A DNA stretch of 64,000 nucleotides from Myxococcota bacterium (GCA_965228475.1 OZ245817.1:4398264-4462263); one strand, 5' to 3'. Shown: positions 10,811 to 57,020, numbered from the stretch's first letter. A program made the numbers and translations. The notes: a model not told the origin generated them from the letters alone.

Positions 10811-10813
10811 CCG

Positions 10814-16811: not shown

Positions 16812-16849
16812 ACCCTGGGAGGTTGCAGGTCCACTCCTCCGAGAAGCGA

Positions 16850-16892
16850 CCGGCGGGGGAAAGGGTTGGACCCGCCGGCCGCTCTCGGCCGG
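16850..16892. terminator. Two adjacent GC-rich hairpins between convergent genes (possible bidirectional terminator)
   Basis: CCGGCGGG-N13-CCCGCCGG overlapping CCGGCCG-CTCT-CGGCCGG. No clear U-tract. Confidence 0.35.
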
Positions 16893-16896
16893 AGCG

Positions 16897-17487
16897 CTAG
16901 CGACGCCCCCGGCGCCAGATTCCCACCAGGGCACCGGCAACCAGCAGGGCGGCACTGGGCTCGGGCACGCTTGCGCCGCCATAGGTCCCGTCACCCCCAC
17001 CCACGGTGTAGCTGGCGTTGAGCCCGAAGTTGAAGTGCTCACCGAGGCTGATGAGTCCCGTGGGCCCGAAATCGAAGATCTCGTTGAACCCCATGCCGAT
17101 GCCATAGTGGACTTGATCGAACCCGTGCGAGAAGCTCCCGCTGGGGTTGAGCCCCGGCGGGGTGCCTCCCAGGTGGTAGACACCGGCGAAGCTGTGGAGG
17201 TATCCGTCTTCGAAGACGACGGTGCCCTCGTAGGTGAACGGACCATCGCCTGCGTTGGGCTCCTCCCGGAACGTCACGTTGAGGTCCCAACCCCAGACGC
17301 AACCCCCATAGGCGCAGGAATCGAAGGTCACTTCGCTCGCGGCGCTTGACTCGAGGATGAAGAGCGCGTTGTAGCCGACCTCCGCCTCGTTCGAGTAGAC
17401 GACGGTCAGGCTCACGGCCGAGGCCGGGGCTCCGGAGAACAACATGGCCAGGCCCAGGGCCAAGCCGGCAAGGAATCGAACAGACAT
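16897..17487 (-). CDS. PEP-CTERM sorting-domain secreted protein
   Basis: Signal peptide. C-terminal VPEPSAALLVAGALVGIWRRGRR (PEP motif, TM helix, Arg cluster). ATG behind AAGGAGG. Confidence 0.8.
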   Translation of the reverse strand: MSVRFLAGLALGLAMLFSGAPASAVSLTVVYSNEAEVGYNALFILESSAASEVTFDSCAYGGCVWGWDLNVTFREEPNAGDGPFTYEGTVVFEDGYLHSFAGVYHLGGTPPGLNPSGSFSHGFDQVHYGIGMGFNEIFDFGPTGLISLGEHFNFGLNASYTVGGGDGTYGGASVPEPSAALLVAGALVGIWRRGRR

Positions 17488-17564
17488 GAACAACAACACC
17501 TCCTTGCCCGCCGATGCGTCTAAACAGTCGAAAGGGCAATTTTAATTATACCGAGTGAACTATT
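17488..17564 (-). promoter_or_regulatory. Conserved AT-rich leader, paralogous to 19275..19345
   Basis: About 85% identity over about 52 nt with the other leader (AATAGTTCACTCGGTATAATTAAAATTGCCCTTTCG vs AATATTCCGATCGGTATATTTAAAATTGTCCTTTCG), plus an identical GGGCAAGGAGGTG at the RBS. Confidence 0.6.
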
Positions 17565-17580
17565 TGCAACCGACGTGCCA
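17565..17580 (-). promoter_or_regulatory. Sigma-54 (-24/-12) promoter
   Basis: Minus strand reads TGGCACGTCGGTTGCA, matching TGGCAC-N5-TTGCA exactly. It lies 78 nt upstream of the ATG. Confidence 0.75.
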
Positions 17581-17668
17581 TCTCGCCCCGTCGCAGGGTC
17601 CGACTCTCAAGCTGCCGGAAACAGGAAGGTTTTCACCTCGACTCGACCGCGACCTCCAGATCGCATTG

Positions 17669-17682
17669 GGAACGACGGTTCC
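17669..17682. promoter_or_regulatory. Candidate enhancer (UAS) palindrome, proximal
   Basis: GGAACGACGGTTCC (GGAAC-N4-GTTCC), about 110 nt upstream of the -12 element. Confidence 0.55.
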
Positions 17683-17699
17683 TCTCTAGCCACCAGAGA

Positions 17700-17713
17700 G
17701 GAAAAATTGTTCC
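17700..17713. promoter_or_regulatory. Candidate enhancer (UAS) palindrome, distal
   Basis: GGAAAAATTGTTCC, 31 bp centre-to-centre from the proximal site. Confidence 0.5.
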
Positions 17714-17744
17714 GTCGGTCTATTCGCATGGGGACGCCTTTCCC

Positions 17745-18707
17745 TTACGGGTGATGCGTCAGCTCAGGATCGATGCGGATGACACAGGGCCGTCCGAAAT
17801 CGTCGTCCCGGATCTCGAAACGCCACTCGGGCGCCATCCAGATGATCTGGGCCCAGGGCAGCTGGGCCTCGTAGATCGCCTGGACCGAGATGTACTCGGT
17901 GAGCTCCGGGCATCGATCGTCGAGGATCGTGATGTCGACGGTGGTCGTTTGCTCGTGGGCAGGAAACGTGAAGGGCAACAGCTCCGGATAGGTCGTTACC
18001 GGCCCATCGAAGTCTTCCCCCGCCTTCGCGGTCGAGCCGAAGGCGATCCAGAAGTCCAGAACCGGGATGGCGAAACGCCCAGAGTGCATGGCGTAGTAGT
18101 CCGTCACCGGTTCGTCGACCTTGAACATCTGCGAGAAGGTGAGGGTCTCGGTCCGCGTGGGCGACTCGTCGAAGGGCGCGTTCTCCGCGGTGACGTCGAT
18201 CAACGGAGGCCAGGCCGTGAACTGTGCACCCTGGATACAGATCGTTCCGTTCTGTTCCATCTGCGCCCACAGCGTATGGAGGCCGGGGTTGAGCGCGTAG
18301 CCCGGGGGCTCGTCGTCGAAGTCCGACGTGATCACGCTGATGAAGGCGTACTGATCGGCGGTCTTCACCTGCTCGACGCCGCCGGTGGTGTTCCCGTCCA
18401 GCCACAGCGTGACGAAGGGGCCGAGCGCCGCGTTCGGAAGAGTCCAGCTCAGCTCGAGGTTGCCCGACCCGTTGTGGTAGAGCGGCCATTCCGTGCCGAA
18501 TGAGCCTGAGGTGACGAGGAACGGTTGGCAGCCCGCCCCTTGAACGGCGCCGATCGAAGGCGGCTCCGGTGTTGCCGTCGGGCTGAGCGGGGATCCGCTG
18601 GGCTCGACCGGAACGACCCCGGAGAGCGAGGCAACGGCAGGGAGAGCGAGAAAGAACGTCACCGAAGCCAGCAGTGCGGTGCGTTGGACGAGAGTTCCGA
18701 ATTTCAT
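17745..18707 (-). CDS. Secreted protein with C-terminal Calx-beta-like domain
   Basis: ATG behind AAGGAAAC. Signal peptide. Calx-beta pattern GSTAKAGEDFDGPVTTYPELLPFTFPAHEQTTTVDITILDDRCPELTEYISV. Confidence 0.7.
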   Translation of the reverse strand: MKFGTLVQRTALLASVTFFLALPAVASLSGVVPVEPSGSPLSPTATPEPPSIGAVQGAGCQPFLVTSGSFGTEWPLYHNGSGNLELSWTLPNAALGPFVTLWLDGNTTGGVEQVKTADQYAFISVITSDFDDEPPGYALNPGLHTLWAQMEQNGTICIQGAQFTAWPPLIDVTAENAPFDESPTRTETLTFSQMFKVDEPVTDYYAMHSGRFAIPVLDFWIAFGSTAKAGEDFDGPVTTYPELLPFTFPAHEQTTTVDITILDDRCPELTEYISVQAIYEAQLPWAQIIWMAPEWRFEIRDDDFGRPCVIRIDPELTHHP

Positions 18708-18782
18708 GGTGGGTTTCCTTGGTCGAGGGCCGGCCTGCGGGTGGGCCACGCCCGTCGAACGGGCCCACCCCTCCAGGCGAGT

Positions 18783-19274
18783 TCAGGGCTGTCGAGAGCC
18801 GAGCGGCGGGCGGCGAGCGCCGGCCAGGGCGACCACGACGAGCAGGGCAAGGGCGGGCTCGGGCACACCGACGTGTCTTCCACTGAAGATGAAATCGCCG
18901 GACGGCGAGCCCCCGTCATGGACCGCCGAGTAGACGTCCATCCCGTTGCCGTGGGGGACGGTGCCGCTGAGCGACGTGCCGGTGGTTCCGGCGAAGAGCC
19001 AGGTCTCACCGTCCTCGTGGGTACTTCTCCCTGACCAGGCGAGCACACCTCCGGCTTCGCTGAAGAGGATGCTCACGTCCCAGAAACAATTCCCGGCGAC
19101 GCAGGAGTTGAAGGCGACGTCCTGGCCGCCGTCGAGGACGACTTCCAGACGCAGGCCGTAGCTCTCGGCGCTGTTGTCCTCGAACTCCACGTTGATGGTC
19201 ACCGCCGACGCAGGGCCGGCGGCCAGAATCAGAGCCAACCCGAGGACCGGCCAGGCAAAGGACCGAGCAGACAT
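18783..19274 (-). CDS. PEP-CTERM sorting-domain secreted protein (paralog of 16897..17487)
   Basis: ATG 7 nt after AAGGAGG. C-terminal VPEPALALLVVVALAGARRPP. Shares FNSCVAGNCFW / FDSCAYGGCVW with the paralog. Confidence 0.8.
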   Translation of the reverse strand: MSARSFAWPVLGLALILAAGPASAVTINVEFEDNSAESYGLRLEVVLDGGQDVAFNSCVAGNCFWDVSILFSEAGGVLAWSGRSTHEDGETWLFAGTTGTSLSGTVPHGNGMDVYSAVHDGGSPSGDFIFSGRHVGVPEPALALLVVVALAGARRPPLGSRQP

Positions 19275-19345
19275 GAGCACACCTCCTTGCCCTTTCGAGT
19301 CAATAAAACCGAAAGGACAATTTTAAATATACCGATCGGAATATT
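19275..19345 (-). promoter_or_regulatory. Conserved AT-rich leader with an SD-proximal hairpin
   Basis: See 17488..17564. Hairpin TGTCCTTTCG-N11-CGAAAGGGCA lies immediately 5' of AAGGAGG. Confidence 0.6.
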
Positions 19346-19361
19346 TGCAACGGGCGTGCCA
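19346..19361 (-). promoter_or_regulatory. Sigma-54 (-24/-12) promoter
   Basis: Minus strand reads TGGCACGCCCGTTGCA, 72 nt upstream of the ATG. Confidence 0.75.
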
Positions 19362-19451
19362 TCCGGGGCAGCGCACGGACTGCCGGGCGCAAGCCTTCGC
19401 CGGCGAAGGGATTTCCGAATGGCTGAGGAACGGAGCGAGCCCGGGGCGTTG

Positions 19452-19465
19452 GGAACGCCGGTTCC
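19452..19465. promoter_or_regulatory. Candidate enhancer (UAS) palindrome, proximal
   Basis: GGAACGCCGGTTCC. The flanks TTGGGAACGNCGGTTCC are shared with 17665..17682. Confidence 0.55.
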
Positions 19466-19482
19466 GTCCGAGCCGCAAAATG

Positions 19483-19496
19483 GGAAAAACGTTTCC
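19483..19496. promoter_or_regulatory. Candidate enhancer (UAS) palindrome, distal
   Basis: GGAAAAACGTTTCC, 31 bp centre-to-centre from the proximal site. Confidence 0.5.
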
Positions 19497-19570
19497 CACG
19501 AGACGGATCATCGCCTCGACTCGCGGCGGTCGGCCAGGGGCTGGGATCGCCCTGAAAAGCCGGTCTGAGC

Positions 19571-20227
19571 CTACTTGCGGCGGTCCGAACTCGGCGGAGG
19601 CTCGCCGGACTCGAGCTCGGCGGCGTCTCGCTGGGCCTGCTCGACGATGGCCCGGACCGCGAACTGCGTCATCTCGCGGTAGATCTCCGGCGCGCGGCGG
19701 GTCCCCAGCCAGAGGGCCTCGGCTCCGTGGCCCAGCGCCGTGATCGCCTCGGCGGCCGGACGGCCGACCTCCTCAGGCAGGCCCAGGAACTCCTGGATGA
19801 TGTTCACCCGGTGCTCGATGGAGAGCTTCGCCACGACAGCATGGCCGTCGTTGACCATGGCGCTGGCCATCAGCTGCTGCATCGCGCTGGCGAAGGTTCG
19901 CAGCTCGGGCCGGAAGTGCAGAGCCAGCTGAGCGTCCAGCCGTTCGCTCCAGTCGCCGGGGGTCTGAGTGAGGATTCCGGTGAAGGCCTGGTGGGCTCGA
20001 GCGGCGATGGCTTGGAAGAGCCCCTCGCGCGAGCCGAAGTGGTGGAGGACCGAGGTCTTGCTGGTGTCCGCCTCGCGCGCGATGTCGGCCAAGGAGATGG
20101 CCATTCCCTGCTCGCCGATCAGACGGATCGTCGCGAGGAGGATCGCCTCCTTGGACTCCTCTCCCGCGCGCCCCTTCGGTCGCCCGGCCTTGCGGGCGGG
20201 CTTCGAAGGCGGGGATTCCGGAGCCAT
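19571..20227 (-). CDS. TetR-family transcriptional regulator
   Basis: HTH region ILLATIRLIGEQGMAISLADIAREADTSKTSVLHHFGSREGL. Confidence 0.85.
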   Translation of the reverse strand: MAPESPPSKPARKAGRPKGRAGEESKEAILLATIRLIGEQGMAISLADIAREADTSKTSVLHHFGSREGLFQAIAARAHQAFTGILTQTPGDWSERLDAQLALHFRPELRTFASAMQQLMASAMVNDGHAVVAKLSIEHRVNIIQEFLGLPEEVGRPAAEAITALGHGAEALWLGTRRAPEIYREMTQFAVRAIVEQAQRDAAELESGEPPPSSDRRK

Positions 20228-20340
20228 TGAAAGAGGTTAGCAGTTCCCTCCTCTCTCTTTTTTCCTCAGCCTCGATTTTATTAGACCATTCGCTCAATAG
20301 CATGTTAATAGATCAGTCAGTCTATTCAAAGGAGACTCCC

Positions 20341-23331
20341 ATGGCCCTTCTGCGCCTCTGGACCCTGCTCTGTTCCGTGCTCTTCCTTGCGGTGTCCCCC
20401 GCCCAGGCGGAGTCCGTCATTCCGGACCCGCCGGAATGCTTGCCCGCCTCGGTCCTGGCTGCGCTCGAGGGGGCCGGCCTGCTCCCCACCGAAGAGGGCG
20501 AGGACGGAGACGTGGGCGCTGGGGGCGGCAGCCAGGGCGGCGGCGGGAATGACGGCATGCAAGGCTCGGACGGCGGCGCGACCGGGCCCGATCAGGGCGA
20601 CGGGAGCGGGCACGACTCCGGTGACGGCGACCCGGACGCTCCCTGGTGGACGAACATCCCCACCGACCTGCCCGAGGACTTCGAAGCCCCCTTCTACTGG
20701 ATCTACTACTGGTCCAATGGCTACGGCCCGCCGCCTCCGGCCTGCGAGGACCTCCCGCCGCCGCCGGTCTCCTTCCTGTTCATCGAGATCACCGACCCGG
20801 AAGAAGACCCGTTCCACACGGTTCACGAGACCCAGAGCCTCGCCGGCGAAATCATCTCCGGCAACGGCTCCCCGCTCCAAGAGATCCAGTTCTTCAACCA
20901 GCGGAACCTGGACTGGGGCCTGGTCGACGTCTCCGGCGAAGCGTTCGACGTAGAGGGCATCGAACTCGAGATCGGGGAGAACCCGATCGTCGTCTTCGGC
21001 TCGAACGTAGCCGGCGCCTCGGACTCGGACACCATCACGGTGATCCGCAAGGACAAGCACTGCAACACCCACCAGGGCAACGTGCTCTGCACGGAACCCT
21101 GGTGCGACGGCAGCTTGCCGATGTCGCTGATCAAGCCCCAGTACCGGACCTGGCTCGAGCAGCATCCGAGCGGGATCGGTGTGCTCTACCCGATGCACGG
21201 CGACTTCCCGCCGGCAACGGACCTTCCTCCCCCGCCGGCAGACCCGCTCGACGCAGAGCTCACCTACTCGGTCTTCCAGGAGAACGGTCAGCCGATGATC
21301 CGCTTCCACGCGGAGCTTCGCAGCTTCGACTCGCTGCCGACGCCCTTCACACTCGGGGAGGTGGCCGTGGAGGTCACGGCCTCCGGTGAGAACGGCGACA
21401 CGACGATGCTGCTCACGCCGTTCTGCTACGACGACGCCGAGGCCTTCTACGACCTGAACGGCGAGGTCTTCGGCTACGTCGACGCCATCCTCCCCTACGA
21501 CGGGACGACGACGGTTACGGCGACACTCGTCGAGGTCGACGACGAGGGCGAACCGATCGTCCCCACCGTCACCCTCGGCACCGACCGCAACACGTTCATT
21601 CCGAACGACAACCCGATCGCGACCACCGACCCCGTCCCGAACGGACTCGTGGCCCAGATCAACGACACCGGCCTCGACGCGGTGGCCGGTGCCTTCAGCG
21701 GCCAGGTCAGCACGCTGATCAAGGACGGCCTGGCGGATACGGTTGGGGTGCCGCTACCGCAGTTCTCGTTCGAAACCACCTTCGAAGAGCTCGAGGTGAC
21801 CTCCGTCGGTCTTGCGCTGAGCGAAACGAGCGCGCTCAACACGACCTTGGCGCTCAACGGTCTGAAAGGCCACCTGAAGGTCAACATTCCCATACTCGGG
21901 GATTGTCACATCTGGTTCGAGACCGACAGCGCCACCGTGGCGGCCAGCTTCACCCAGCTCCCCGCATCCGACGCCCACCAGATCGATCTCGCGCCCGCGG
22001 GTACAACGCTGTCGTTCTCGACGCCAACGTACGAATACAGCGACAGTATCCTTTTCCCCGGCTGCGGCCCCGTCATGCTGTACCTCGGCCAGTCCATGGA
22101 CGAGATCGTCGATGACATCATCACCGGGATCCTGGAAGGGGTCGACAAGGAACTCGAGCCGGGGCTCGAGAACGAGATCAACGGGCTCGGCCTGGGCTCG
22201 ATGGTCGGAGACCTCCTGCAGGTGAAGTTCGACGGGACCTTCTCGTCGATCGACGACTTGACTGCGATCGCCCGCTACAACGTCGACGCGCACTTCGAAG
22301 CCATCTCGGACAACGTGCTGGTGACGGAGTCCTTCGCGCCGCCGGATGATTTCATGCCCTTCGGCACGACCGCGCCGGGCGTCGGCGGCTTCGATCTCGG
22401 GGTGTATCTCACGCCCGCCGCCTTGAACCAGGTCCTGGCCGCGCGCACGAACGATGGCATGCTCAGTGGCCAGATCACGGAGCTGACACCGGGTCAGCCC
22501 CTCACGGTCGACCTGCTGAACACGTTCGGCGTTTTCTTCCCGGACGACGCGCAGAAGACCGACCCCGTCGTCGTGGAGCTCGTGCCCACGATGGCCCCCA
22601 TGACGGACGGCGGGCCCGGGCCGGACGGCGACATGTACCAGCTCGACATCTGGCAGCTCATCCTGAAGGTCCTCTGGACCGACGGTCAGGGAGAGGAAGT
22701 CGAAGTTCTTCGCGCGGCGGTGGACTTCTCCCTCGGGTTCGACATCGGGTTCCCCGAACCCTGGGCGCCTCCGGCCACCGAGCTCAGCCCGCCGACCGCA
22801 CCGGCCGTAGTGAAAGTCCTCTTCGCTCCGTACGGAGTGAACGACTTCATCTTCCCGATTGCGGTGAGCGGCGTGCTGGCAACGAGCTTCGATGCTCTCG
22901 TGGGCGGCCTGTTCGGGGACGGCAACGGCGGCCCGATCGGCGTCCTCGGACTGGACGTGGAGGGCGAGGGAGCCTTGCGAGCCGGGGACGCCATGGCGTT
23001 GCTCTTCGATCTCTCCATCGCACCGACGCAAGCCAACCTCGTCTACGAGCAGGACGACATCGAGGACATCTCGGTGGAGTTCACGGTGACGTTCCCCTTC
23101 GACGGTGTCTCCTTCGCCTGGGACTTCGGCGACGGCGATACGCAGACGACCTCGGGGCCGAGCGTCACCCACATCTACGGCGGCCTTCCGGGCTACAACG
23201 GGCTCCCGCCCGGCCTCCACGACTTCGGTGTGAAGGTGGACGTCACGCGGGAGAACGGCGCCGTGGTCTCGGGCAACACGGCCATCCTGATCTGCATCAA
23301 GGAGAACCCGGACGACGTCTGCGAGCAGTGA
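20341..23331 (+). CDS. Large secreted protein (996 aa): Gly/Asp-rich N-terminal region, long unassigned middle, C-terminal PKD domain
   Basis: ATG behind AAAGGAG. Signal peptide LLCSVLFLAVSPAQA-ES. PKD signature FAWDFGDGDTQTTSGPSVTHIYGG...GLHDFGVKVDVTRENG. The track start 20227 lies in an AT-rich non-coding leader. Confidence 0.8.
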   Translation: MALLRLWTLLCSVLFLAVSPAQAESVIPDPPECLPASVLAALEGAGLLPTEEGEDGDVGAGGGSQGGGGNDGMQGSDGGATGPDQGDGSGHDSGDGDPDAPWWTNIPTDLPEDFEAPFYWIYYWSNGYGPPPPACEDLPPPPVSFLFIEITDPEEDPFHTVHETQSLAGEIISGNGSPLQEIQFFNQRNLDWGLVDVSGEAFDVEGIELEIGENPIVVFGSNVAGASDSDTITVIRKDKHCNTHQGNVLCTEPWCDGSLPMSLIKPQYRTWLEQHPSGIGVLYPMHGDFPPATDLPPPPADPLDAELTYSVFQENGQPMIRFHAELRSFDSLPTPFTLGEVAVEVTASGENGDTTMLLTPFCYDDAEAFYDLNGEVFGYVDAILPYDGTTTVTATLVEVDDEGEPIVPTVTLGTDRNTFIPNDNPIATTDPVPNGLVAQINDTGLDAVAGAFSGQVSTLIKDGLADTVGVPLPQFSFETTFEELEVTSVGLALSETSALNTTLALNGLKGHLKVNIPILGDCHIWFETDSATVAASFTQLPASDAHQIDLAPAGTTLSFSTPTYEYSDSILFPGCGPVMLYLGQSMDEIVDDIITGILEGVDKELEPGLENEINGLGLGSMVGDLLQVKFDGTFSSIDDLTAIARYNVDAHFEAISDNVLVTESFAPPDDFMPFGTTAPGVGGFDLGVYLTPAALNQVLAARTNDGMLSGQITELTPGQPLTVDLLNTFGVFFPDDAQKTDPVVVELVPTMAPMTDGGPGPDGDMYQLDIWQLILKVLWTDGQGEEVEVLRAAVDFSLGFDIGFPEPWAPPATELSPPTAPAVVKVLFAPYGVNDFIFPIAVSGVLATSFDALVGGLFGDGNGGPIGVLGLDVEGEGALRAGDAMALLFDLSIAPTQANLVYEQDDIEDISVEFTVTFPFDGVSFAWDFGDGDTQTTSGPSVTHIYGGLPGYNGLPPGLHDFGVKVDVTRENGAVVSGNTAILICIKENPDDVCEQ

Positions 23332-25894: not shown

Positions 25895-26416
25895 CTAGCC
25901 CTCGTCGACGAGCTTCTCGAGGATGCCGTCGATCGCCTTTTCGGCGATCTCCACCATCTCGCCGTCGGTGCGGTCCTGGATGGGGTGCTGGACGAAGACG
26001 GCCGCCGGATCGGCGCCGAGGGCCCGGGCCTGGGCCTCCGCCGCGTCCACGAACTCCGTCGTCGCGACGAACACGCCGGGGATGCCGCGGGCTTCGAGGT
26101 CGACCGTGTCGTGCACACTGCACGACGTGCAGCTGCCTCAATCGGCGAGCGCTTCCACCACCGCATCGCACTCGACGGCGATCTCCTGACGGAGATCGGG
26201 CGGGGCGGGCTTCGTGAAGGTCGGCTTCTTGTAGCGGCGCACCTCGGCGCCGCGCTCGCGCAGGCCCTGCTCGAGCCGGTCGAGGAAGACGTCGCCGCGG
26301 GCCTTCGAGATGTCGAGCAGGCCGACGGTGCGGCCGGCCAGGGTGTCGAGCCGGGCCAGGCGCTCGCGCGTGGCCGCGCTCCGCTCACTCGTCGGGTCGA
26401 GGAGGATGCGGGTCAC
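25895..26416 (-). CDS. Candidate selenoprotein (173 aa) with an in-frame UGA in a U-G-S-C-x-x-C motif
   Basis: Track ORFs 26138..26416 and 25895..26116 are in the same frame, separated only by TGA 26140..26138. The read-through gives ...VVEALAD-U-GSCTSCSVHDTVDLEARGIP... GC3 stays high across the junction. Confidence 0.6.
26108..26126 (-). other. Candidate SECIS-like hairpin 11 nt 3' of the UGA
   Basis: GUCGUGCA-GUG-UGCACGAC (8-bp stem). An alternative 6-bp hairpin CUGCAC-GUC-GUGCAG lies 5 nt after the UGA. Confidence 0.4.
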
Positions 26417-26435: not shown

Positions 26436-27875
26436 TCACGGCCGGATCTCCTTCATCACCGGGGTGCTGCCGACCTCGCCGGAGACCCACCCGGGGATGA
26501 TCGCAGAGAAGAGTCCGGCGCCGCCACCGCAGTGCACGATGCGCAGGCCGCCGGGCCGGAACTTCGGGAGCGTCGCGTCCTTCAGGCCTTCGGGAACACC
26601 CTCGGCGATGCCGCCCGCGCCGCGTACCAGCTCGGCCCCCGGGATCAGCAACAGCTCGCCGAGCTTCGCGATCAGGTCGTCCTTGCTCCAGCCGGCCTCG
26701 CGAAAGATGCGCGCGTGCTCGGGGCCGACGGCGAGGATCGCGTCGAAGGCCATCACGAGCTTCGGGTGCGTGAGCGGGCGCAGCGCGGCGGCGTAGCTGC
26801 GCGAAAGCGACTCCGGGTCACGCGAGAGCTGGTCGACGAGCGTGTTCGGGCCCTCGCCGCAGAAGGCGGTCACGGCGTCCTGCCCGGGCGCGGCGCCAAA
26901 CTCGGTCGCCAGCGGCGTCCACGGCGAGTTCTCCTCGTCCTCGGCGAAGCAGAAGGAGAGCTTGCTCGGGTTGCCGTGGGCCGCGCGGTCGATCTCACCC
27001 GGGCGTCCGCCGCCGACGTTACGCACCACGAGCTGGACGGCGCGGCCGATCGTCGAGTTCGCGCGGTTGCCCTGGCCGAAGACGTTCTTCCCGGAGTTCA
27101 TGCCGATGCGCCTGCGGACCGGGCCGTTCACGACGAGGACGGGCGCGACGGGCATGGTCGTCGCGAGCACGCCGTGGATGTTGAACGCGTCCGTGCAGAT
27201 CGCCTCGACGGCGGCGAGCACGACGGGCAGGTACTCGGGCTTGCAGCCGGCGAGCACCGCGTTGATCGCGACCTTCTCGACCGTGCACGGCACGAGGTCC
27301 GGCGGAACGGTCGCGACGATCTCGTCGGCCGCGCGCTCGGTGCCTTCGAGCATCGCGAGCACGCGCCGCTCGGTGGGCGGGACGAGCGGGAGGCCATCGC
27401 TCCAGCCGCGCTCGAAGAGGGCCTCCATCTCATCCTCGAGGGGCGCGAGCTCGACGCGGCGGGCGGAGAGCTTGTGCCCCTCGAAGCGCACGGCCAGATC
27501 CGGCGCGAGGTCCGGGTCCACGGACTTCGAGCCGCAGCCCGGACGCCACTCCGGGAGCTCGGGCCCGAGACCGGAGAGCCCCGTCAGCTGCTCCCAGTCG
27601 GCGCGGTGCCAGCCGAGCGCGCGCCCGACCTCGCGGCCGTCCTCGATGCGCAGGAGCGTCGGCACGGTCTCGATCCGGTGGTGGTAGGAGACGGCGAGGC
27701 CGGTGTCGTCGACGGGCGACACGCCCTCGGGGAAGGCGACGTCGTCCTGGGTGTAGACGGTGAGCTCGGTGCGCGCATCGAGATCCCGCAGGACCGGCGC
27801 GACGAGCTCGCACGTCGGGCACTCACGCTTCACGACCGCGACGAGGCCGGAGGGAAGGTCTCGAACCGTCTCCAT
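26436..27875 (-). CDS. Thioredoxin-fold (CPTC) N-terminal domain fused to an unassigned domain of about 370 aa
   Basis: ATG 6 nt after GGAGG. VAVVKRECPTCELVAPVL...TVPTLL is thioredoxin-like. The remainder has no motif I recognise. Confidence 0.75.
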   Translation of the reverse strand: METVRDLPSGLVAVVKRECPTCELVAPVLRDLDARTELTVYTQDDVAFPEGVSPVDDTGLAVSYHHRIETVPTLLRIEDGREVGRALGWHRADWEQLTGLSGLGPELPEWRPGCGSKSVDPDLAPDLAVRFEGHKLSARRVELAPLEDEMEALFERGWSDGLPLVPPTERRVLAMLEGTERAADEIVATVPPDLVPCTVEKVAINAVLAGCKPEYLPVVLAAVEAICTDAFNIHGVLATTMPVAPVLVVNGPVRRRIGMNSGKNVFGQGNRANSTIGRAVQLVVRNVGGGRPGEIDRAAHGNPSKLSFCFAEDEENSPWTPLATEFGAAPGQDAVTAFCGEGPNTLVDQLSRDPESLSRSYAAALRPLTHPKLVMAFDAILAVGPEHARIFREAGWSKDDLIAKLGELLLIPGAELVRGAGGIAEGVPEGLKDATLPKFRPGGLRIVHCGGGAGLFSAIIPGWVSGEVGSTPVMKEIRP

Positions 27876-27938
27876 GGGAAGCCTCCGACGGGAGAGCATA
27901 CCTCGACTTCGGAGAGCTAGGCAGGAACGTCCCCCTGG

Positions 27939-28433: not shown

Positions 28434-29311
28434 AGGCTCGCCTGCACGGAGAGGTACACGCCGTTCTGGCTCCGGAAACCGGCGATGTCGCCGAGCATCG
28501 CGTAGGAGGCGACGAGCCCGACGTGTTTGTTCGGGAACCACGCGACGAAGACGTCCATCCAATCCGATTCCTTGGCGAACTTCAGGTTGCTTCCCTTCTG
28601 GCGATACTCGAAGCCGAGCGCGAGGCGCCGGTTCATGAAGAGAGCTGCCGAGCCCTCGAACAGGGCCCGGTAGCCGCCGCGCCGGTCGCCGCCGAAGCCG
28701 AGCAGGCCGAGTTCGTTGGCCCGGGTCGCGCGCACGGTTCCGTTCAAGACGAGGTTGCGGCCGAGCACGGCACCGAGGAAGAGCTTCGTCGCGGAGAGAT
28801 AGGCGTCGACCCCCCAGTGTCTGCGAGCTCCGACGGCTTCGGGCAGGGCGAAGTCCATGTTGTGCTTGTACTGGACGCCGGCCGCGAACTGGGGCCAACC
28901 GCCGTAGACCACGTCGCCGAAGAGTCGGACCTTCGCGCTCGCGACGTTCATGCGCAGGCGCGTATCGAGCGGACGCACGAAGAAGCGCTGGTGGGCGAAA
29001 GAGAACTCGACGCGATTCCAGAAGCCGACCGAGGCACCGTAGGACTCGAGTCTGAAGTCCGGCAGCCGGACGTTCGTCGCACTGATTCCGCCGCCGATCT
29101 GATCTTCGGTGCCGGTTCCCGCGATCACCGCCCAGGGAACGAGCCCGCCCCCGGCCGAGCCCTCGACCTGGGTCACGCCACCGGTCGCGAGCAGCCGCCC
29201 GCCGGCGGAAGCGAGGGTCGGCGTGAGCGCGATCGCCGCGAGCATCGCCGCGGCCAGGGCGCCCTGTCTACGCCGCCGGCTCCGTGAAGCCCCCTGCCTT
29301 CTGGTACGCAT
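28430..29311 (-). CDS. Outer-membrane beta-barrel-like protein (DUF3034-like, from memory)
   Basis: Signal peptide, GGGLVPWAVIAG, and alternating beta-strand pattern to the C-terminus. Alternative start at 29245. Confidence 0.65.
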   Translation of the reverse strand: MRTRRQGASRSRRRRQGALAAAMLAAIALTPTLASAGGRLLATGGVTQVEGSAGGGLVPWAVIAGTGTEDQIGGGISATNVRLPDFRLESYGASVGFWNRVEFSFAHQRFFVRPLDTRLRMNVASAKVRLFGDVVYGGWPQFAAGVQYKHNMDFALPEAVGARRHWGVDAYLSATKLFLGAVLGRNLVLNGTVRATRANELGLLGFGGDRRGGYRALFEGSAALFMNRRLALGFEYRQKGSNLKFAKESDWMDVFVAWFPNKHVGLVASYAMLGDIAGFRSQNGVYLSVQASL

Positions 29312-31604
29312 CCATCCACTCCAAGAAATCCGGCTCGGCGAGGGGGCGGCTGATCCCGTAGCCCTGGGCGACGTCGCATCCGGCCCGGGCGAGCAGCCGC
29401 CAGACCAGCCGATCCTCCACGCCTTCGGCGACCACCCGGAGCCCGAGGGCGTGGGCGAGCTCCACGGTGGAGCGCACGATCACCTCGTCGGGCGTGCCCT
29501 CCCGCATGTGGCGAACGAACGCCTGATCGATTTTGAGTTCATCGACCGGAAGCCGCTTGAGTTGAGCCAGGGACGCCTGGCCGGTCCCGAAGTCGTCCAG
29601 GGAAACCCGGATGCCCGCGCCGCGCAGATCGCCGAGGATCCGGGCGCCGCCCTCCGGGTCCGCCATCACCGCGCTCTCGGTGACTTCGACATGCAGACTG
29701 CCGGGTGCGAGCCCCGCTTCTCCGACGTGCCGACGGATCCGCTGGGCGAGGCGCGGGTCGGCCAGGTCGTGGGCGGACAGGTTCACCCCGACCTTGATCT
29801 CGTAGCCCCGCGTGGCCCAGGCCGCGGCGCGTGTCGTCGCGTGGCGCAGCACCCATTCCGTCAACGCCCCGATGCTGCCCGCCTGCTCCGCGAGGGCGAC
29901 GAAGAGGTCCGGGCGCATGGGGCCGAGCTGCGGGTGCTCCCAGCGGATCAGCGCCTCGACGCCCACGAGCTCGCCCGTCGCCATCTCGATCTTGGGCTGG
30001 TAGTGCATGTCGAGGGCGTCATCGACGATCGCCTGGCCGAGATCCGAAAGGATCGCGACCCGGCGACGATTGTCTTCCTCGTGGCCGGGCTCGAACTCGG
30101 CCAGCGGAAGGCGCTCCGCCTTCGCCGTCACCATCGCGAACTCCGCGCGTCGCAGGAGATCTTCGGCGGAGCCGCCATCCTCGGGTGCGCGCAAGACGCC
30201 GGCCGTCGCCCGGATGCCGACGCGCGCGCCGCCGTAGGTGAGGGGTTCCTCTAGATCCGCGAGAAAACCTCGAACCCGCTCGACGCCATCGGCGGAGCCG
30301 TCCTCCGGGAAGACGACCAGGAACTCGTCGCCGCCGACCCGGGACACGAACCCGGAACCGGCGAGCCTCGTCTGAAGACGCTCGGCGACGGTCCGCAGGG
30401 CAGCGTCGCCCGCGGGCTGGCCGAGCGCCGCGTTCACGTCCTTCAGCCGATCGATGTCGAGCAGCGCGATGCGTAGCGAGGCCCCGCTCTGCGCGCTCTC
30501 CTCGATCAGCCAGTCGAGCGCCGTCGGCGCGACGGTCCGGTTGGGGAGGCCGGTCAGGCCGTCGTGGGACGCCTGACGACGGATTTCCTGCTCGCGTTCG
30601 CGGATCGCCCCCTGCATCGTGCGGAAGGTCTCGGCGAGGACGCCGATCTCGTCGGCGCTCGAGACGGCGACCTCCGTCCCGTAGTCGCCGCTCGAGATCC
30701 GCTTGGCCGCGTCGGCGAGGGCACGGATGGGCCTCGCGAAGCTGCGCGCGCTCAGCATGGAACCGGCGAGCGCACCCGCCAGGCTGAGTGCGAACAGCAC
30801 GAGGAGCTCGGCCCGCAGGGCTTCGTACGGCGCCATGGCTTCGGAATGGGACGTCTGGAGCACGGCGCCGGCGCCGCCGTTTCCGAACCTCACGGAGAGC
30901 GTGATCCAATCCGAACCCTCCGGCCGCGCCGGGACCGACTCTGCGGGCAGGCCCTCGTGAGACGCCACCCACCGGCCGAGGCTTTCGCGCTCGGCCGCGG
31001 GCAAGGTCGAGGCCGGGAGCGCGTCACGAGCGCCCACGAAGGAGACTTCGAGGCCGGAGAGCTCGCGCAGGGCCAGCGCGAGTTCGTCGTCGAGGGCAAA
31101 GCCCATGGCGACCCAGCCCACGCGGAGCGGCGCGTGGACCGGAACCAGCACGACCTGGTGCGGAGCGCCGGCCAGCTCGAGGACCGTCGTCGTGGCTTCT
31201 CCCTCCGACCGGCCGACGAGGTGCGTGAAGACACCGTCGGCGGAGACCGGCGGGAAGGCCGCGGTCTGCCTGCCCTCGAGATCGAGCAACAGCGTGACGT
31301 CCGAACCGATCCGGCCGCCGTGGTTCTCGAGTACGGACGCGATCGTCGGGACGTCCCGGGTCGCGACGGCGCGCTTGAAGCCGAAGTCGGAGGCGAGGAT
31401 CTCGACACTCGAGAGAAGCTGACGCTCGCGGTCGGCCAGCAGGCGGTCGAAGTCGCGGCCACCGCGCTCGAGGGCCTCGTAGGCATGGTTCTCGGCGCTG
31501 CGCTCCGTCGCGGCAAGCACCAGCACGATGGTCACGCCCTGGCTCGCGAGGATCAGGCCGAGCATCCAACGCAGCAGGCGGGTTCGAACGCTCGCCGCGC
31601 TCAT
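29268..31604 (-). CDS. Membrane sensor / HAMP / GGDEF / EAL protein (c-di-GMP turnover)
   Basis: ATGA overlap with the upstream gene. Two TM helices flank a periplasmic domain. HAMP, then GGDEF (RVGGDEFLVVF), then EAL (EALIRW, DDFGTG, KIDQAFV). The track ORF 29268..34115 is a read-through artefact. Confidence 0.9.
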   Translation of the reverse strand: MSAASVRTRLLRWMLGLILASQGVTIVLVLAATERSAENHAYEALERGGRDFDRLLADRERQLLSSVEILASDFGFKRAVATRDVPTIASVLENHGGRIGSDVTLLLDLEGRQTAAFPPVSADGVFTHLVGRSEGEATTTVLELAGAPHQVVLVPVHAPLRVGWVAMGFALDDELALALRELSGLEVSFVGARDALPASTLPAAERESLGRWVASHEGLPAESVPARPEGSDWITLSVRFGNGGAGAVLQTSHSEAMAPYEALRAELLVLFALSLAGALAGSMLSARSFARPIRALADAAKRISSGDYGTEVAVSSADEIGVLAETFRTMQGAIREREQEIRRQASHDGLTGLPNRTVAPTALDWLIEESAQSGASLRIALLDIDRLKDVNAALGQPAGDAALRTVAERLQTRLAGSGFVSRVGGDEFLVVFPEDGSADGVERVRGFLADLEEPLTYGGARVGIRATAGVLRAPEDGGSAEDLLRRAEFAMVTAKAERLPLAEFEPGHEEDNRRRVAILSDLGQAIVDDALDMHYQPKIEMATGELVGVEALIRWEHPQLGPMRPDLFVALAEQAGSIGALTEWVLRHATTRAAAWATRGYEIKVGVNLSAHDLADPRLAQRIRRHVGEAGLAPGSLHVEVTESAVMADPEGGARILGDLRGAGIRVSLDDFGTGQASLAQLKRLPVDELKIDQAFVRHMREGTPDEVIVRSTVELAHALGLRVVAEGVEDRLVWRLLARAGCDVAQGYGISRPLAEPDFLEWMDAYQKAGGFTEPAA

Positions 31605-32320
31605 CGCGCTCCCTTGCGGAAGAGGTGTTGGAGCGGATCCTCTTCTTCGTGCGCCTCGTCCTCGTTCACCTCGTGTTTCGCTCGGGGATCCGGGGCGAGT
31701 TTCCCGGGGATTCTCAAGACGACTTCGTTGCCGGCCTCGAGGTCGAACGTGCCCAACGGGACGCCTTGCTCGGGAAGTCGCGGATGCAGGACCTGGACCC
31801 GGTGAGACCCGGGGCGCTTCAACCCGGTCGAAGCGCGACCCCCTTCGTCGGTCACCGCATGGGCCGCGCCGTCGAGCACATAGACGTACCCGATCATGTG
31901 GTCGTGGATGTTGCAGCCGAGCACGACCGTACCGGCCGTCTCGAAGGTCACGGGGGGTGCCTCCACACCGGCGTAGAGCTTCAACTCGAAGGTCTTGGCG
32001 GTAGAGAAGGAGTAGACGTGGTGGCGGGTCTGGTCGCTGTTGGGGAAGGAGACCTGCGTTCCGCGCGGGACGGCCAGGACGTAGGGCGAGAACTGCTTCT
32101 CGCGCTGGTCCACGACGGCCCGCAACGCAGGCGCGATGGCCGGCTCCGCTCCGAGAACCGCCACGACGGCGTTCGGGAGCGGAGCTCCCGAGACGTCCAG
32201 GACCTGCCAGCGCACCTCCGCAGCGGAGGCGAGGCTCGAGCCACAGCAGGCGAGCAGGAGAACCACGGCCCGGGCCAGCGGCAACGAGCGGCGGAAATCG
32301 CGACGCAGAAGCGCACCCAT
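31601..32320 (-). CDS. Periplasmic cupredoxin-like protein ('methylamine utilization protein' type)
   Basis: Signal peptide. Candidate copper ligands in RHHVYSF and GCNIHDHM. Confidence 0.65.
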   Translation of the reverse strand: MGALLRRDFRRSLPLARAVVLLLACCGSSLASAAEVRWQVLDVSGAPLPNAVVAVLGAEPAIAPALRAVVDQREKQFSPYVLAVPRGTQVSFPNSDQTRHHVYSFSTAKTFELKLYAGVEAPPVTFETAGTVVLGCNIHDHMIGYVYVLDGAAHAVTDEGGRASTGLKRPGSHRVQVLHPRLPEQGVPLGTFDLEAGNEVVLRIPGKLAPDPRAKHEVNEDEAHEEEDPLQHLFRKGAR

Positions 32321-32422
32321 CCGGGTGTCTTCGACGCTCTTCCGGACGGTCTTGAGATCGCCGCCGAAGTCCCGCCGGGAATGGCCGGAGCGTCCGGGGA
32401 AACCCCGAGACGCGGTCGCCGC

Positions 32423-33451
32423 CTAGAGCTTGCCGCGCTCGAGCAGGGCCTCGGCGATCTGCACCGCGTTGGTCGCGGCGCCCTTGCGCAGGTTGTCCGA
32501 CGTCTGCCACAGCCAGAGCTTGTCGCTCGCCGTGTCGCGGCGGATGCGGCCCACGAGCACTTCGTCCGTCCCCTCGACGTCCGCCGCCGTGGGGAAGGCC
32601 ATCGTGGCCGGGTCGTCCACCACGCGGCAGCCGGGGAACGCGGCGATGGCCTCGCGCGCGGCCTCGGGCGTGATCGGCTTCTCCGTCTCCACGAGCACGG
32701 TGGCCGAGTGTCCGACCGGGACCGGAACCCGCACGCAGGTCATCGAGACGTCCACGTTCGGGAGACCCATGATCTTGCGGGTCTCGTCGAGGAGCTTGCG
32801 CTCCTCGTCGGTGTATCCGTCGTCGCGGAACGAACCGCACACGGGCACCGGGTTGTAGGCGATCTGGTGCGCGAAGACCTCGGGCGGCGGCACGGGCTCG
32901 CCCGCCTGCACGGCCTTCACCTGGGCGTCGAGCTCGTCGATGCCCGGCGTCCCCGAGCCCGAGACGGCCTGGAGCGTCGTCACGACGAGGCTCTTGAGCC
33001 CCGCCGCGCGGCGGATCGGCTCGACGGACATCACCAGCCCGGTGGTGGTGCAGTTCGGGTTCGCGACGATGCCGCGGTGCTTCTCGAGGGCGTCGGCGTT
33101 GATCTCCGGCACGACGAGCGGCACCTCGTCGTCCATGCGCCAGGTGCTCGACTTGTCGATCACGACCGCCCCGCGCTTCACGGCCTCCGGCGCGAGCTCC
33201 TTCGAGAGCCCGCCGGTCGCCGCGAAGAACACCAGGTCGACGCCCTCGAAGGCCTCGGGACAGGCGACCTCGACCTTCGCCTCCTGCCCCGCGAACGTCA
33301 CCGTCGTGCCCGCGCTTCGCGTGCTCGCCAGCGGCTTGAGCTGGGAGACCGGGAAGTGGCGCTCTTCCAGCACCCCGAGGAGAACTTCCCCCACGGCACC
33401 GGTGGCGCCGACGACGGCGACGACGGGTTGTTTCTGCGAGACCTTGGACAC
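32423..33451 (-). CDS. asd: Aspartate-semialdehyde dehydrogenase
   Basis: GTG 6 nt after AAGGAG. VAVVGATGAVG and active-site NPNCTT. Confidence 0.9.
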   Translation of the reverse strand: MSKVSQKQPVVAVVGATGAVGEVLLGVLEERHFPVSQLKPLASTRSAGTTVTFAGQEAKVEVACPEAFEGVDLVFFAATGGLSKELAPEAVKRGAVVIDKSSTWRMDDEVPLVVPEINADALEKHRGIVANPNCTTTGLVMSVEPIRRAAGLKSLVVTTLQAVSGSGTPGIDELDAQVKAVQAGEPVPPPEVFAHQIAYNPVPVCGSFRDDGYTDEERKLLDETRKIMGLPNVDVSMTCVRVPVPVGHSATVLVETEKPITPEAAREAIAAFPGCRVVDDPATMAFPTAADVEGTDEVLVGRIRRDTASDKLWLWQTSDNLRKGAATNAVQIAEALLERGKL

Positions 33452-33470
33452 GACCTTCTCCTTGCGCGGG

Positions 33471-33491
33471 GCGCAAACCCTCCGTTTGCGC
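33471..33491. promoter_or_regulatory. Perfect 8-bp inverted repeat in the asd/TetR divergent region (candidate operator)
   Basis: GCGCAAAC-CCTCC-GTTTGCGC. Confidence 0.4.
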
Positions 33492-33539
33492 CGTATCCGG
33501 CTGGACGGCGATGATGGCGCATGTTTCAATCCACCGCCC

Positions 33540-34172
33540 ATGAGCGAGGAAGCCGGCGAGAGCGAGGAGACCGTCGCAGGGACGGAGGGCGAAGGCTCCC
33601 CCCCGACGCGCCTGGCCACGAGCCAGGTCAAGCGGCTCCGGCGCATCGTCGACGCGGCGTCGAAGCTCGCCGAGGAAGGCGGGTTCGAGGCCGTCCGGCT
33701 GCGCGACGTGGCCGAGGCTTCCGGGGTCGCCCTCGGCACGCTCTACCGGTATTTCCGCAGCAAGGAAGACATCTTGGTGTTCGTCCTTGCCGAACAGGTC
33801 GACGGGCTCGAAGCCGCGCTCACCCGCCGGCCCCCCACCGGCGCGACCCCCGCCGAGCGCGTGGGCGTCGTCTTCGGCCTGACCACCCGCGCCCTGACCG
33901 GCCGCCCGCACCTCGCCCGCGCGCTCCTGCGGGCGGTCTCCGCCGGCGAGCCCGAAACCAAGGAGAAGGTGGCTTCCTTCCATCTCCGGGTGAGCCGGAT
34001 CGTGCTCGACGCCCTGCGCGGCGAGGGCGAAGCGACACCGCGGCTCCACGGCGTGGCGACCATCCTCCAGCAGGTCTGGTTCGCTTCGCTCGTAGGCTGG
34101 ACGGGCGGCCTGCACGACGCGAAGACCGTCATCCGCCAGACGGACGACGCCGCCGCCCTGCTTCTGGAGTAG
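33540..34172 (+). CDS. TetR-family transcriptional regulator
   Basis: ATG at MSEEAG. HTH region IVDAASKLAEEGGFEAVRLRDVAEASGVALGTLYRYFRSKEDIL. Confidence 0.85.
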   Translation: MSEEAGESEETVAGTEGEGSPPTRLATSQVKRLRRIVDAASKLAEEGGFEAVRLRDVAEASGVALGTLYRYFRSKEDILVFVLAEQVDGLEAALTRRPPTGATPAERVGVVFGLTTRALTGRPHLARALLRAVSAGEPETKEKVASFHLRVSRIVLDALRGEGEATPRLHGVATILQQVWFASLVGWTGGLHDAKTVIRQTDDAAALLLE

Positions 34173-34895: not shown

Positions 34896-34935
34896 GCGCC
34901 CATTCTACAGACTGACCAGGGGGACGTTCCCCTGG

Positions 34936-36051
34936 TCAGTCGGCGGCGAGGGTACGACCCAATTCGGCGAGTTGGCGGTGCGCCGAGCCGAGGGTCAGCT
35001 CGATCTGGCGGGCCCACAGGTAGTAGCGGTGCACCGGGTAGTCGACGTCGACGCCCATGCCGCCGTGCAGATGGACCGCGGCGTAGGTCGCGTTGTGCCC
35101 CCCCTCGGCGGCCCAGTACTTGGCCACCGCGACGGCCTCCTCCGCGGGCTCGCCGGCCGCGAGCCGGCTCGAGGCCTGCCAGCTCGTGAGACGCATCGCC
35201 TCGATGCCGACGTAGGCATCCGCCGCGCGCTGGTGGACGGCCTGGAAGCTTCCGATCGGGCGATCGAACTGTTCGCGCTGGGTCGTGTACTCGGCGGTGA
35301 TGCGGATGGCGCGCTCCGCCACGCCGAGCGCCACGGCGCAGAGCGCGGCCTTCGCGCGCAGGGCCAGCCACGCGACGGCCGCCGCGCCCTCCTCCGGGCC
35401 CGCGAGCACGTCGTCGGCGTCGATGCGCGCACCGGAGAGCACGACGTGGGACTGCGGCTCGGAGTTCGTCGCCTCGACCGCCTGGAGCTCGACGCCATCC
35501 GCCGCCGGGTCGAGCAGGAAGAGCCCGATGCCCGTGTCGGTCCGGGCCGGGACGAGGATGCGCTCGGCCAGCGCGGCGAAGGGCACCGAGAGCTTCATGC
35601 CGTCGAGGCGCCAGCCGTCGCCGTCGCGCGAGGCCACGGTGGCGGGCGTCGCCGGGTCTTCGTTCTCGGGCTCCGCGAGGGCCGCGGTCAGCACCGCATC
35701 GCCCGACGCGACGCGGGGCAGGAAGTGCGCCTTCTGCGCGTCGCTTCCGAACTCCTCGATCGGCAGCGCCCCGAGCACGAGCGTCGGAACGAGCGGCACC
35801 GGGGCGACCGCGCGGCCGCCCTCCTCGAGCAGCAGGGAGAGCTCCAGGAACCCCATGCCCATGCCCCCGTGCGCCTCGCCGATGGCGATGCCGAGCAGGT
35901 TCGACTTCGCGAGCTCGGCCCACAGCGTGCGGTCGAAGCACTCGCCGGCCTTTTCCAACTCGCGCAGGCGATCGTGCCCGCACAGGTCCGCGAAGATCTT
36001 CGCCGAGAGCTCGCGCAGGCTGTCCTGTTCGTCGGAGAACGAGAAGTCCAT
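34936..36051 (-). CDS. Acyl-CoA dehydrogenase family protein (second gene of an adjacent pair)
   Basis: MDFSFSDEQ... N-terminus and ...QFDRPIGSFQAVHQRAAD... The ATG is 2 nt after the upstream gene's stop. Confidence 0.85.
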   Translation of the reverse strand: MDFSFSDEQDSLRELSAKIFADLCGHDRLRELEKAGECFDRTLWAELAKSNLLGIAIGEAHGGMGMGFLELSLLLEEGGRAVAPVPLVPTLVLGALPIEEFGSDAQKAHFLPRVASGDAVLTAALAEPENEDPATPATVASRDGDGWRLDGMKLSVPFAALAERILVPARTDTGIGLFLLDPAADGVELQAVEATNSEPQSHVVLSGARIDADDVLAGPEEGAAAVAWLALRAKAALCAVALGVAERAIRITAEYTTQREQFDRPIGSFQAVHQRAADAYVGIEAMRLTSWQASSRLAAGEPAEEAVAVAKYWAAEGGHNATYAAVHLHGGMGVDVDYPVHRYYLWARQIELTLGSAHRQLAELGRTLAAD

Positions 36052-36053
36052 GG

Positions 36054-37226: not shown

Positions 37227-37308
37227 GGAAGGCTCCGTTCGCTCGAGGGGCCGTGGGCCGGCGGGGTCGGGGCCGGCGGCGAAGAACGCCATCATTCTAC
37301 CTTGGAAT

Positions 37309-37322
37309 TAGAACGCGTTCTA
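37309..37322. promoter_or_regulatory. KstR-type operator palindrome
   Basis: TAGAACGCGTTCTA, in the divergent region between the ACAD pair and the ferredoxin gene. Confidence 0.6.
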
Positions 37323-37594: not shown

Positions 37595-37603
37595 GCCCCG
37601 GCC

Positions 37604-57019: not shown

Positions 57020-57020
57020 G

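Follow-up and report, generated by a model that had tools for sequence, protein, structure and literature searches.

The window, by which we mean the whole 64-kb stretch of DNA that was analysed, carries on its minus strand a 173-codon frame (25895-26416) that extends from a GTG at 26416 to a TAG at 25897-25895 and whose sole interruption is a TGA at 26140-26138, as seen in both the sequence and its translation. The minus-strand codons read GTG (26416) ... GAT TGA GGC AGC TGC ACG TCG TGC AGT GTG CAC GAC ... TAG, and translation through the TGA gives ...AVVEALAD-*-GSCTSCSVHDTV..., which around the site becomes EALAD-U-GSCTSCSVHD when the UGA is taken as selenocysteine (Sec). Mechanical ORF calling breaks this frame into two pieces, 26138..26416 (92 aa) and 25895..26116 (73 aa). 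A sequence-only reading of the same DNA had described these two minus-strand ORFs as lying in one frame and split by the TGA, and both the ORF list and the translation agree with it. The GTG start is in accord with the N-termini of homologs (VTVLLDPTSE, MKVLDPTSE). On the same strand, the stop codon of a second, conserved gene, hereafter called the partner, lies 19 nt before the start of the frame. The coordinates of the features are collected in Table 1.

Table 1. Features of the predicted selenoprotein gene and its partner (positions in the window).
Feature	Position	Strand	Basis or remark
UGSC-family predicted selenoprotein gene, complete; predicted Sec at codon 93	25895..26416	-	frame, ORFs, family scores above cut-off
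Predicted Sec codon UGA	26138..26140	-	Cys aligned in 117/120 homologs; TGA in 82/83 sequences
U-G-S-C-T-S-C putative redox motif (UxxCxxC)	26120..26140	-	G, S, C, T, S, C invariant in 46-sequence alignment
Spacer between UGA and hairpin, 11 nt (codons G, S, C and two bases of T)	26127..26137	-	synonymous sites free
Apical hairpin of the putative SECIS	26108..26126	-	5' arm 26126-26119 GUCGUGCA, loop 26118-26116 GUG, 3' arm 26115-26108 UGCACGAC
Conserved partner gene	26436..27899	-	thioredoxin-fold N-terminus and ~370-aa C-terminal domain

Coding character is continuous across the TGA, as had been supposed from the sequence, because GC3 is 0.90 on its 5' side and 0.95 on its 3' side, in a window whose overall GC content is 69.8%. 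The ratio pN/pS, calculated for the window against 81 relatives and with pS near saturation, is 0.38 before the UGA and 0.45 after it. The part downstream of the UGA is under purifying selection that matches that on the upstream part. One possible reason for an in-frame TGA is a genome-wide reassignment of the codon, and this was ruled out because TGA closes 23 of the 45 gene calls in the window, where it is the commonest normal stop. The TGA at 26140-26138 is the sole convincing case in the 64 kb of a TGA with coding sequence on both flanks. A second TGA, at 37592-37594 on the plus strand (window 37384-37594), is preceded by approximately 70 in-frame codons with a GC3 of 0.89, and an acyl-CoA dehydrogenase gene that starts at about 37604 continues the same frame after it. 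Its context, ...ALKLEG*APAVDF..., is without a Cys or a redox motif, and this TGA is probably a chance occurrence in a GC-rich intergenic region.

With U replaced by Cys, the product scored 159.1 bits against NF041046, "UGSC family (seleno)protein" (cut-off 125), and 158.7 bits against Pfam PF24696, "UGSC family" (cut-off 25). The family name had been suggested in the sequence-only reading; it is a real one, and the product passes its curated cut-off. The [U/C]-G-S-C motif that gives the family its name is found in the window as D-U-G-S-C-T-S-C. Judged by these scores, the window gene is an additional member of an already described family. The "UGSC-containing protein" was noted as a predicted selenoprotein by Zhang and Gladyshev in 2007 (PMC1976440) and again in 2008 (PMC2398784), when 255 Sec forms and 21 Cys forms were reported from the GOS data, which puts the family among the predicted selenoproteins found most often in aquatic metagenomes (PMC2398784). 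The 2008 paper also gives a fusion partner for the family, labelled 'Unknown_1'. A 2026 review lists UGSC under NF041046, among families whose functions are largely uncharacterised (PMC13188914). The novelty of the gene itself is, therefore, low. It resembles the UGSC family (NF041046/PF24696) in its whole-length HMM match, in having U-G-S-C with a UGA, in its size (~170-185 aa), in the SECIS placed immediately downstream, and in the distribution of the forms, with Sec forms dominating in environmental bacteria and Cys forms found elsewhere (Bradyrhizobium, Methylobacterium). There is no essential difference, except that the fold is modelled here as flavodoxin-like and was guessed in 2008 to be thioredoxin (Trx)-like.

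A collection of 5.8 billion proteins yielded 1996 protein homologs, the best 120 of which were aligned; all are full length (170-198 aa). The residue aligned with the UGA is Cys in 117 of these best 120, inside a nearly invariant L[SA]D-C-GSCTSCS[TV]. This bears out the earlier claim that the UGA occupies the first position of a CxxC-like motif, at a site of Sec/Cys exchange, and the alignment of homologs that had been proposed as a check thus places Cys within a nearly invariant CGSCTSC. The three non-Cys sequences among the best 120 are the closest matches (P0003, P0004, and P0005). P0004 is listed with W, but its metagenome contig (L002) reads TGA. P0003 has a true TGG (Trp) in the metagenome contig L001 (603-605), one base away from TGA and with the SECIS intact, and P0005, seen as a protein sequence only, shows Arg (R) at the Sec position. 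The TGG of L001 and the Arg codon of P0005 are each a single base removed from TGA; they may stem from mistakes in sequencing or assembly, may mark copies that have been inactivated, or may be genuine variants.

A scan of 185,579 species-representative genomes produced 80 genomic loci with 62-81% protein identity, which are much closer to the window protein than the homologs from the protein database are. TGA stands at the Sec codon in all 80 of these loci and also in the metagenome loci L002 and L136. In one set of 83 related sequences, 82 have TGA at this codon. According to the record titles, the 80 loci belong to Myxococcota (the closest, 81%), Actinomycetota/Acidimicrobiia, Chloroflexota, Acidobacteriota, Binatia, Dormiibacterota, and Hydrogenedentales, and the TGA loci span at least six phyla; the Cys-form hosts include Bradyrhizobium and Methylobacterium. 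Some of the titles look taxonomically wrong: two freshwater MAGs are titled 'Bifidobacterium breve' (L063, L077) and one 'Ferrithrix thermotolerans' (L055), and their hairpin regions differ little or not at all from those of Ilumatobacteraceae, Acidimicrobiales, or Actinomycetota MAGs (L070, L082, L076, L054). Likewise, MAGs titled 'Spirochaetales' or 'Spirochaetaceae' (L005, L006, L018, L030, L036, L059, L069) rank by similarity among the Myxococcota loci.

These data bear on the possibility that the UGSC gene is of the Cys type and that its TGA arose by nonsense mutation or through a mistake in sequencing or assembly, which would make the gene a pseudogene or the codon a misread TGC or TGT. 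That the codon sometimes changes or is miscalled is evident from the single-base variants in the metagenome data, namely the TGG of L001, the Arg of P0005, and a TGT accompanied by an identical hairpin in L083. However, an error of this kind would have to recur in each of the 80 independent genome assemblies, which represent several phyla; the frame after the TGA is unbroken and shows purifying selection; and, as described below, the nucleotide constraint on the hairpin is confined to the TGA forms. We consider an error or a pseudogene extremely improbable. An in-frame UGA that aligns with Cys and has both sides conserved as coding sequence is the mark of a bacterial selenoprotein gene, and the locus bears it. 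As predicted from these comparisons, the TGA at 26140-26138 very likely encodes selenocysteine in this UGSC-family gene.

The hairpin GUCGUGCA-GUG-UGCACGAC is a perfect 8-bp stem-loop inside the coding sequence that starts 11 nt after the UGA. It had been pointed out in the sequence-only reading; its coordinates were confirmed, and it conforms to the published description of the bacterial SECIS (bSECIS), in which an apical loop of 3-9 nt is carried on a stem of 4-16 bp, a G is found in the first two loop positions and is usually followed by G or U, the UGA-to-loop distance is 16-37 nt, and the minimum free energy (MFE) is -7.5 kcal/mol or lower (PMC13188914). All four properties of the window hairpin fall within this description, since the loop is GUG, the stem has 8 bp, the loop begins 19 nt from the UGA, and the MFE of the 30-nt core is ~-12 kcal/mol. 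In these values, in its start 11 nt after the UGA, and in its position in the coding region directly after that codon, with an 8-bp upper stem and a 3-nt loop starting with G-U, it is similar to the bSECIS consensus and to the element of Escherichia coli fdhF, from which it differs in having no conserved lower stem. The fdhF element contains a bulged U and a loop larger than a triloop, and the UGSC hairpin is without such a bulge. An extended lower stem (UGAGG/CCUCGA) that appears in the window MFE fold was ruled out as a part of the element because its codons vary freely at synonymous sites (1.68 bits at the Leu codon at +14).

The hairpin codons, ACG TCG TGC AGT GTG CAC GAC, encode T, S, C, S, V, H, and D. 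Among 81 distinct Sec forms, the synonymous entropy of these seven codons is 0.17, 0, 0.10, 0, 0.10, 0.47, and 0 bits, respectively, whereas it is 1.54, 1.64, 0.75, 2.18, 1.57, 0.72, and 0.99 bits in the control, which consisted of 66 distinct Cys-form sequences encoding the same C-T-S-C-S-x-H-D residues. The low entropy does not extend beyond the hairpin: in the Sec forms, the three spacer codons that precede it show 1.28, 1.81, and 0.81 bits, the codons that follow show 0.8-1.7 bits, and the entropy of the flanking codons is alike in Sec and Cys forms. In the Sec forms, the Ser codon AGT, which is rare in GC-rich genomes, appears without exception (79/79). The MFE of the 30-nt core is -12.2 ± 1.3 kcal/mol in Sec forms and -5.7 ± 3.5 kcal/mol in Cys forms (Mann-Whitney p ~1e-21; neither the MFE nor the entropy statistics are corrected for phylogeny). 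These results demonstrate that the hairpin is under RNA-level selection solely in the Sec forms and not in the Cys forms.

The mere presence of a stem is less telling. The TCG-TGC...CAC-GAC codons are self-complementary, and the protein motif together with GC-rich codon preference, therefore, already favours a hairpin; some Cys forms (L085, L114) also fold to ~-12 kcal/mol. For this reason, the discriminating signal is the lost synonymous variation rather than the stem. Similarly, the single-sequence fold of the hairpin region is not significant against a 70% GC background (z = -1.39), and the significance of the hairpin derives from the comparative data. Rfam at gathering thresholds gave no match in the window. 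In the alignment of the 81 sequences, the stem is paired in 98.6% of cells, as compared with 1-61% in controls with a shifted 3' arm. The near-invariance of the element leaves hardly any covariation: one double compensatory change was seen (C-G to U-A in L066, both changes synonymous) along with eight G-C to G-U wobble changes, too little variation for covariation to be used as stand-alone evidence.

Three further observations concern the evolution of the element. First, the Cys form on a JGI metagenome contig (Ga0589500_04564945; L083, 1229-1290), which has TGT at the Sec position, keeps all seven hairpin codons of the window unchanged, the rare AGT included; it has the appearance of a change from Sec to Cys so recent that the SECIS persists as a relic, or else of a base-calling variant of TGA. 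Second, the 21-nt SECIS core is almost identical in the loci L003-L082, which represent at least six phyla and proteins that are just 62-81% identical, and this points to either a very strict recognition by SelB or a horizontal spread of the Sec-form two-gene cassette. Third, the residues encoded around the loop are S-V (AGU GUG) in Sec forms and S-T in Cys forms, and the RNA requirement may dictate the amino acids of the loop region in the Sec forms.

One could also envision that the UGA is read through in the absence of Sec machinery, by near-cognate insertion of Trp or Cys or by context-dependent suppression, with the hairpin acting as a generic read-through or pausing signal. Insertion of Cys and Trp at UGA is known in some bacteria. 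The searches for Sec machinery lend this idea some room, as no SelA, SelB, or SelD was present among the 25 window genes scanned, no tRNA of any kind, tRNA-Sec included, was found in the 64-kb window, and no tRNA-Sec was found in the flanks of 49 related loci; these searches cover the window and the flanks and are uninformative on the remaining genome. On the other hand, the hairpin fits a SelB-type bSECIS in its loop (G then U), stem, spacing, and energy, the UGA falls at the catalytic UxxC position that is Cys in other lineages, TGA otherwise serves as the commonest normal stop in the window, and UGSC is established as a predicted selenoprotein family whose occurrence follows that of Sec-using organisms (PMC1976440, PMC2398784). 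Taken together, these considerations make Sec-independent read-through very improbable.

For a prediction of the fold, we used the AF2 model of P0002, which is not the window protein but its closest Cys homolog (~65% identical, with the same LADCGSCTSCSVHD motif). The model (pLDDT 91, pTM 0.85) is a single domain that extends across the UGA junction and has five parallel strands alternating with five helices; the Cys equivalent to Sec is placed where helix 3 begins, in the loop that joins beta3 to alpha3. Foldseek comparison of this model with the PDB returned generic flavodoxin-like matches, such as flavodoxin, lumazine synthase, and the MttC corrinoid domain, with TM scores of 0.4-0.5, and no thioredoxin was among the PDB matches. 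PDB sequence and profile searches with UGSC gave no match. The UGSC product is thus predicted by modelling to be a flavodoxin-like alpha/beta domain. The Trx-like fold suggested as likely in 2008 (PMC2398784) is not supported, because Foldseek returns no thioredoxins; a thioredoxin fold with CxxC/UxxC at the N-terminus of helix 1 was considered, and the P0002 model and its matches do not have this arrangement.

The predicted domain is also relevant to the simplest reading of the ORF list, that translation ends at the TGA to give a 92-aa product and that the 73-codon ORF is either untranslated or expressed from the GTG at 26116. Mechanical ORF calling does give two ORFs. Moreover, decoding of UGA as Sec competes with release factor 2, and some truncated product is expected from that competition. 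Nevertheless, the Cys homologs are single polypeptides of 170-190 aa, and the flavodoxin-like domain would span the junction in the beta3-to-alpha3 loop. The GTG at 26116 sits inside the hairpin, a separate start is not conserved, and pN/pS downstream of the TGA matches that upstream. True termination as the normal outcome is, in our judgment, hardly credible. We hold it to be highly probable that the two ORFs form one gene, in which UGA is decoded as Sec under the direction of the hairpin as SECIS and which encodes a UGSC-family selenoprotein of 173 residues and about 18.5 kDa; the product is predicted to be a flavodoxin-like, remote relative of selenoprotein B.

The last element of this reading comes from HMM comparisons. 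The window protein gave weak matches to GrdB and GrdF over the U region, and its residues 79-148 align with positions 333-397 of the 431-position selenoprotein B model, a segment that covers the Sec site. When 46 UGSC members were scanned, matches were obtained to TIGR01917 (GrdB) in 43 (best E 3.8e-6), to GrdF in 42 (best E 9.1e-7), to GrdH in 35, and to TIGR01918 (generic selenoprotein PB) in 30, the best E values across the selenoprotein B models ranging from 9e-7 to 3e-5; no other family was matched by more than three of the 46 members. GrdB, GrdF, and GrdH carry a UxxCxxC motif (PMC6778437, PMC13188914), and UGSC has the same motif in the form U-GS-C-TS-C. On the basis of the consistent HMM matches and the common motif, we conclude that the UGSC domain is probably a distant relative, in stand-alone form, of the C-terminal region that bears Sec in the selenoprotein B family. 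It does not belong to the family itself, because its scores of ~15 bits (15.5 against a cut-off of 602 for TIGR01917 and 15.9 against 800 for NF040794) are far below the cut-offs of 600-800, and because no pyruvoyl proprotein of the GrdE/PrdA type, GrdA, or GrdC is found near the UGSC gene. In sum, UGSC shares with GrdB/GrdF/GrdH (TIGR01917, NF040794, NF040795, TIGR01918) and PrdB the weak HMM matches and a UxxCxxC in which Sec is first, but it has 173 aa instead of ~430, its neighbour is a Trx-fused protein and not a pyruvoyl proprotein, and its hosts, which include Myxococcota and Acidimicrobiia, are not amino-acid-fermenting Firmicutes.

The partner protein has 487 aa, with a CPTC at residues 27-30 of its N-terminal region. 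Its true start is probably Met9 at 27875, which gives 479 aa, and its closest homolog (P0121), 97% identical, is 479 aa long. In 80 of 85 loci, a homolog of the partner immediately precedes UGSC, and the two genes often overlap by 4 bp; the partner-linked loci include Cys forms from Bradyrhizobium and another genome. Across 165 loci, the partner is the only recurrent neighbour; the second and third neighbour clusters proved to be antisense shadow ORFs of the partner/UGSC pair. The family has at least 8000 members, some of which are named "thioredoxin family protein" by NCBI. No Pfam family and no Grd or Prd model was matched by the partner. Its AF2 model (pLDDT 80) and PDB comparisons show a thioredoxin fold at residues ~15-105 with the invariant CPTC, and PDB sequence and profile searches found the thioredoxin domain only. 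The C-terminal region is an alpha/beta structure of ~370 aa with several invariant cysteines, and conserved Cys residues are found at positions 122, 219, 235, 317, and 457; class I fumarate hydratase was considered as its fold and rejected as unconvincing, the Foldseek TM score being just 0.2. In one locus (L034, 1038-3998, plus strand), the partner ORF has ~986 codons, which could mean either that the partner is fused to the gene before it or that the GC-rich DNA there happens to lack in-frame stops.

The genes around the UGSC/partner pair differ between genomes. In the window, the neighbours are a convergent LysR regulator, a class II aldolase, a TetR regulator, and a DUF3034 protein. Elsewhere in the window, catabolic genes of a lipid/steroid-side-chain type are abundant (36054-38785, 44453-47004, and 56027-61837), and these comprise five acyl-CoA dehydrogenase paralogs, a ChsH2-like hydratase (zinc ribbon plus OB fold), a thiolase, and a short-chain dehydrogenase; an AMP-binding ligase and an amidase are located at 13573-16811. 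There are two very large plus-strand ORFs, one at 20227-23331 (1034 aa), whose N-terminal segment is hydrophobic and which also has an acidic stretch rich in Gly and Asp, and one at 40139-42961 (940 aa) with three DUF7467 stretches and a sub-threshold DUF7507 match. A GC3-based caller assigned no genes to 8558-10813, 16812-19570, 29312-32422, 34896-36053, and 58140-59733. A long minus-strand ORF at 29268-34115 shows, by eye, GGDEF/EAL-like motifs in its C-terminal stretch.

SECIS-dependent recoding of the UGA, a single-domain product, and a partnership at the level of the genes are strongly supported by the comparisons presented above. A bacterial SECIS recruits SelB-GTP-Sec-tRNA(Sec) to the ribosome. 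The hairpin that begins 11 nt downstream of the UGA at 26140-26138 would, as the SECIS, bring this complex to the ribosome, and the UGA would be decoded as selenocysteine. The UGSC protein and its partner, if co-transcribed, would then constitute a two-gene module, in which Sec, at the N-terminus of a helix and backed by the Cys residues at +3 and +6, may form a nucleophilic or redox centre. A selenenyl-sulfide between Sec and Cys+3 or Cys+6 could be recycled by the CPTC of the partner's thioredoxin domain, and the C-terminal domain of the partner could provide the substrate site, for binding or for catalysis. The chemistry might resemble the reductive bond cleavage carried out by the B components of the Grd and Prd systems. 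This functional model, with its thioredoxin relay and GrdB-like chemistry, is built on gene adjacency, the predicted fold, and sub-threshold HMM matches. The more specific proposal, that UGSC and the Trx-fused partner are an unrecognised two-component selenoenzyme, derived in evolution from the B component of the clostridial glycine/proline reductases, analogous to it in chemistry, and performing Sec-mediated reductive cleavage of C-N or C-X bonds, is a tentative one that we regard as rather unlikely.

At the level of annotation, one selenoprotein gene should take the place of two short hypothetical ORFs, and the presence of a UGSC selenoprotein implies that the organism, which is probably a Myxococcota-like bacterium, has the Sec-decoding trait. 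The comparison of synonymous variation between Sec and Cys forms offers a clean validation for SECIS elements in coding regions that are too conserved for covariation analysis. To the published accounts of UGSC consulted here, the analysis adds the predicted flavodoxin-like fold, the probable kinship with selenoprotein B, and the near-constant Trx-fused upstream partner of ~480 aa, additions that we consider to be of moderate value. Should the proposal of a two-component enzyme be true, UGSC would belong to a selenoenzyme with built-in thioredoxin recycling rather than to the generic Trx-like thiol oxidoreductases, and this selenoenzyme would be widespread in Myxococcota, Acidimicrobiia, and Chloroflexota, with a Cys form in Alphaproteobacteria. 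The predicted fold, the UxxCxxC kinship with GrdB/F/H, and the Trx-fused partner would provide concrete experimental entry points to the function of UGSC.
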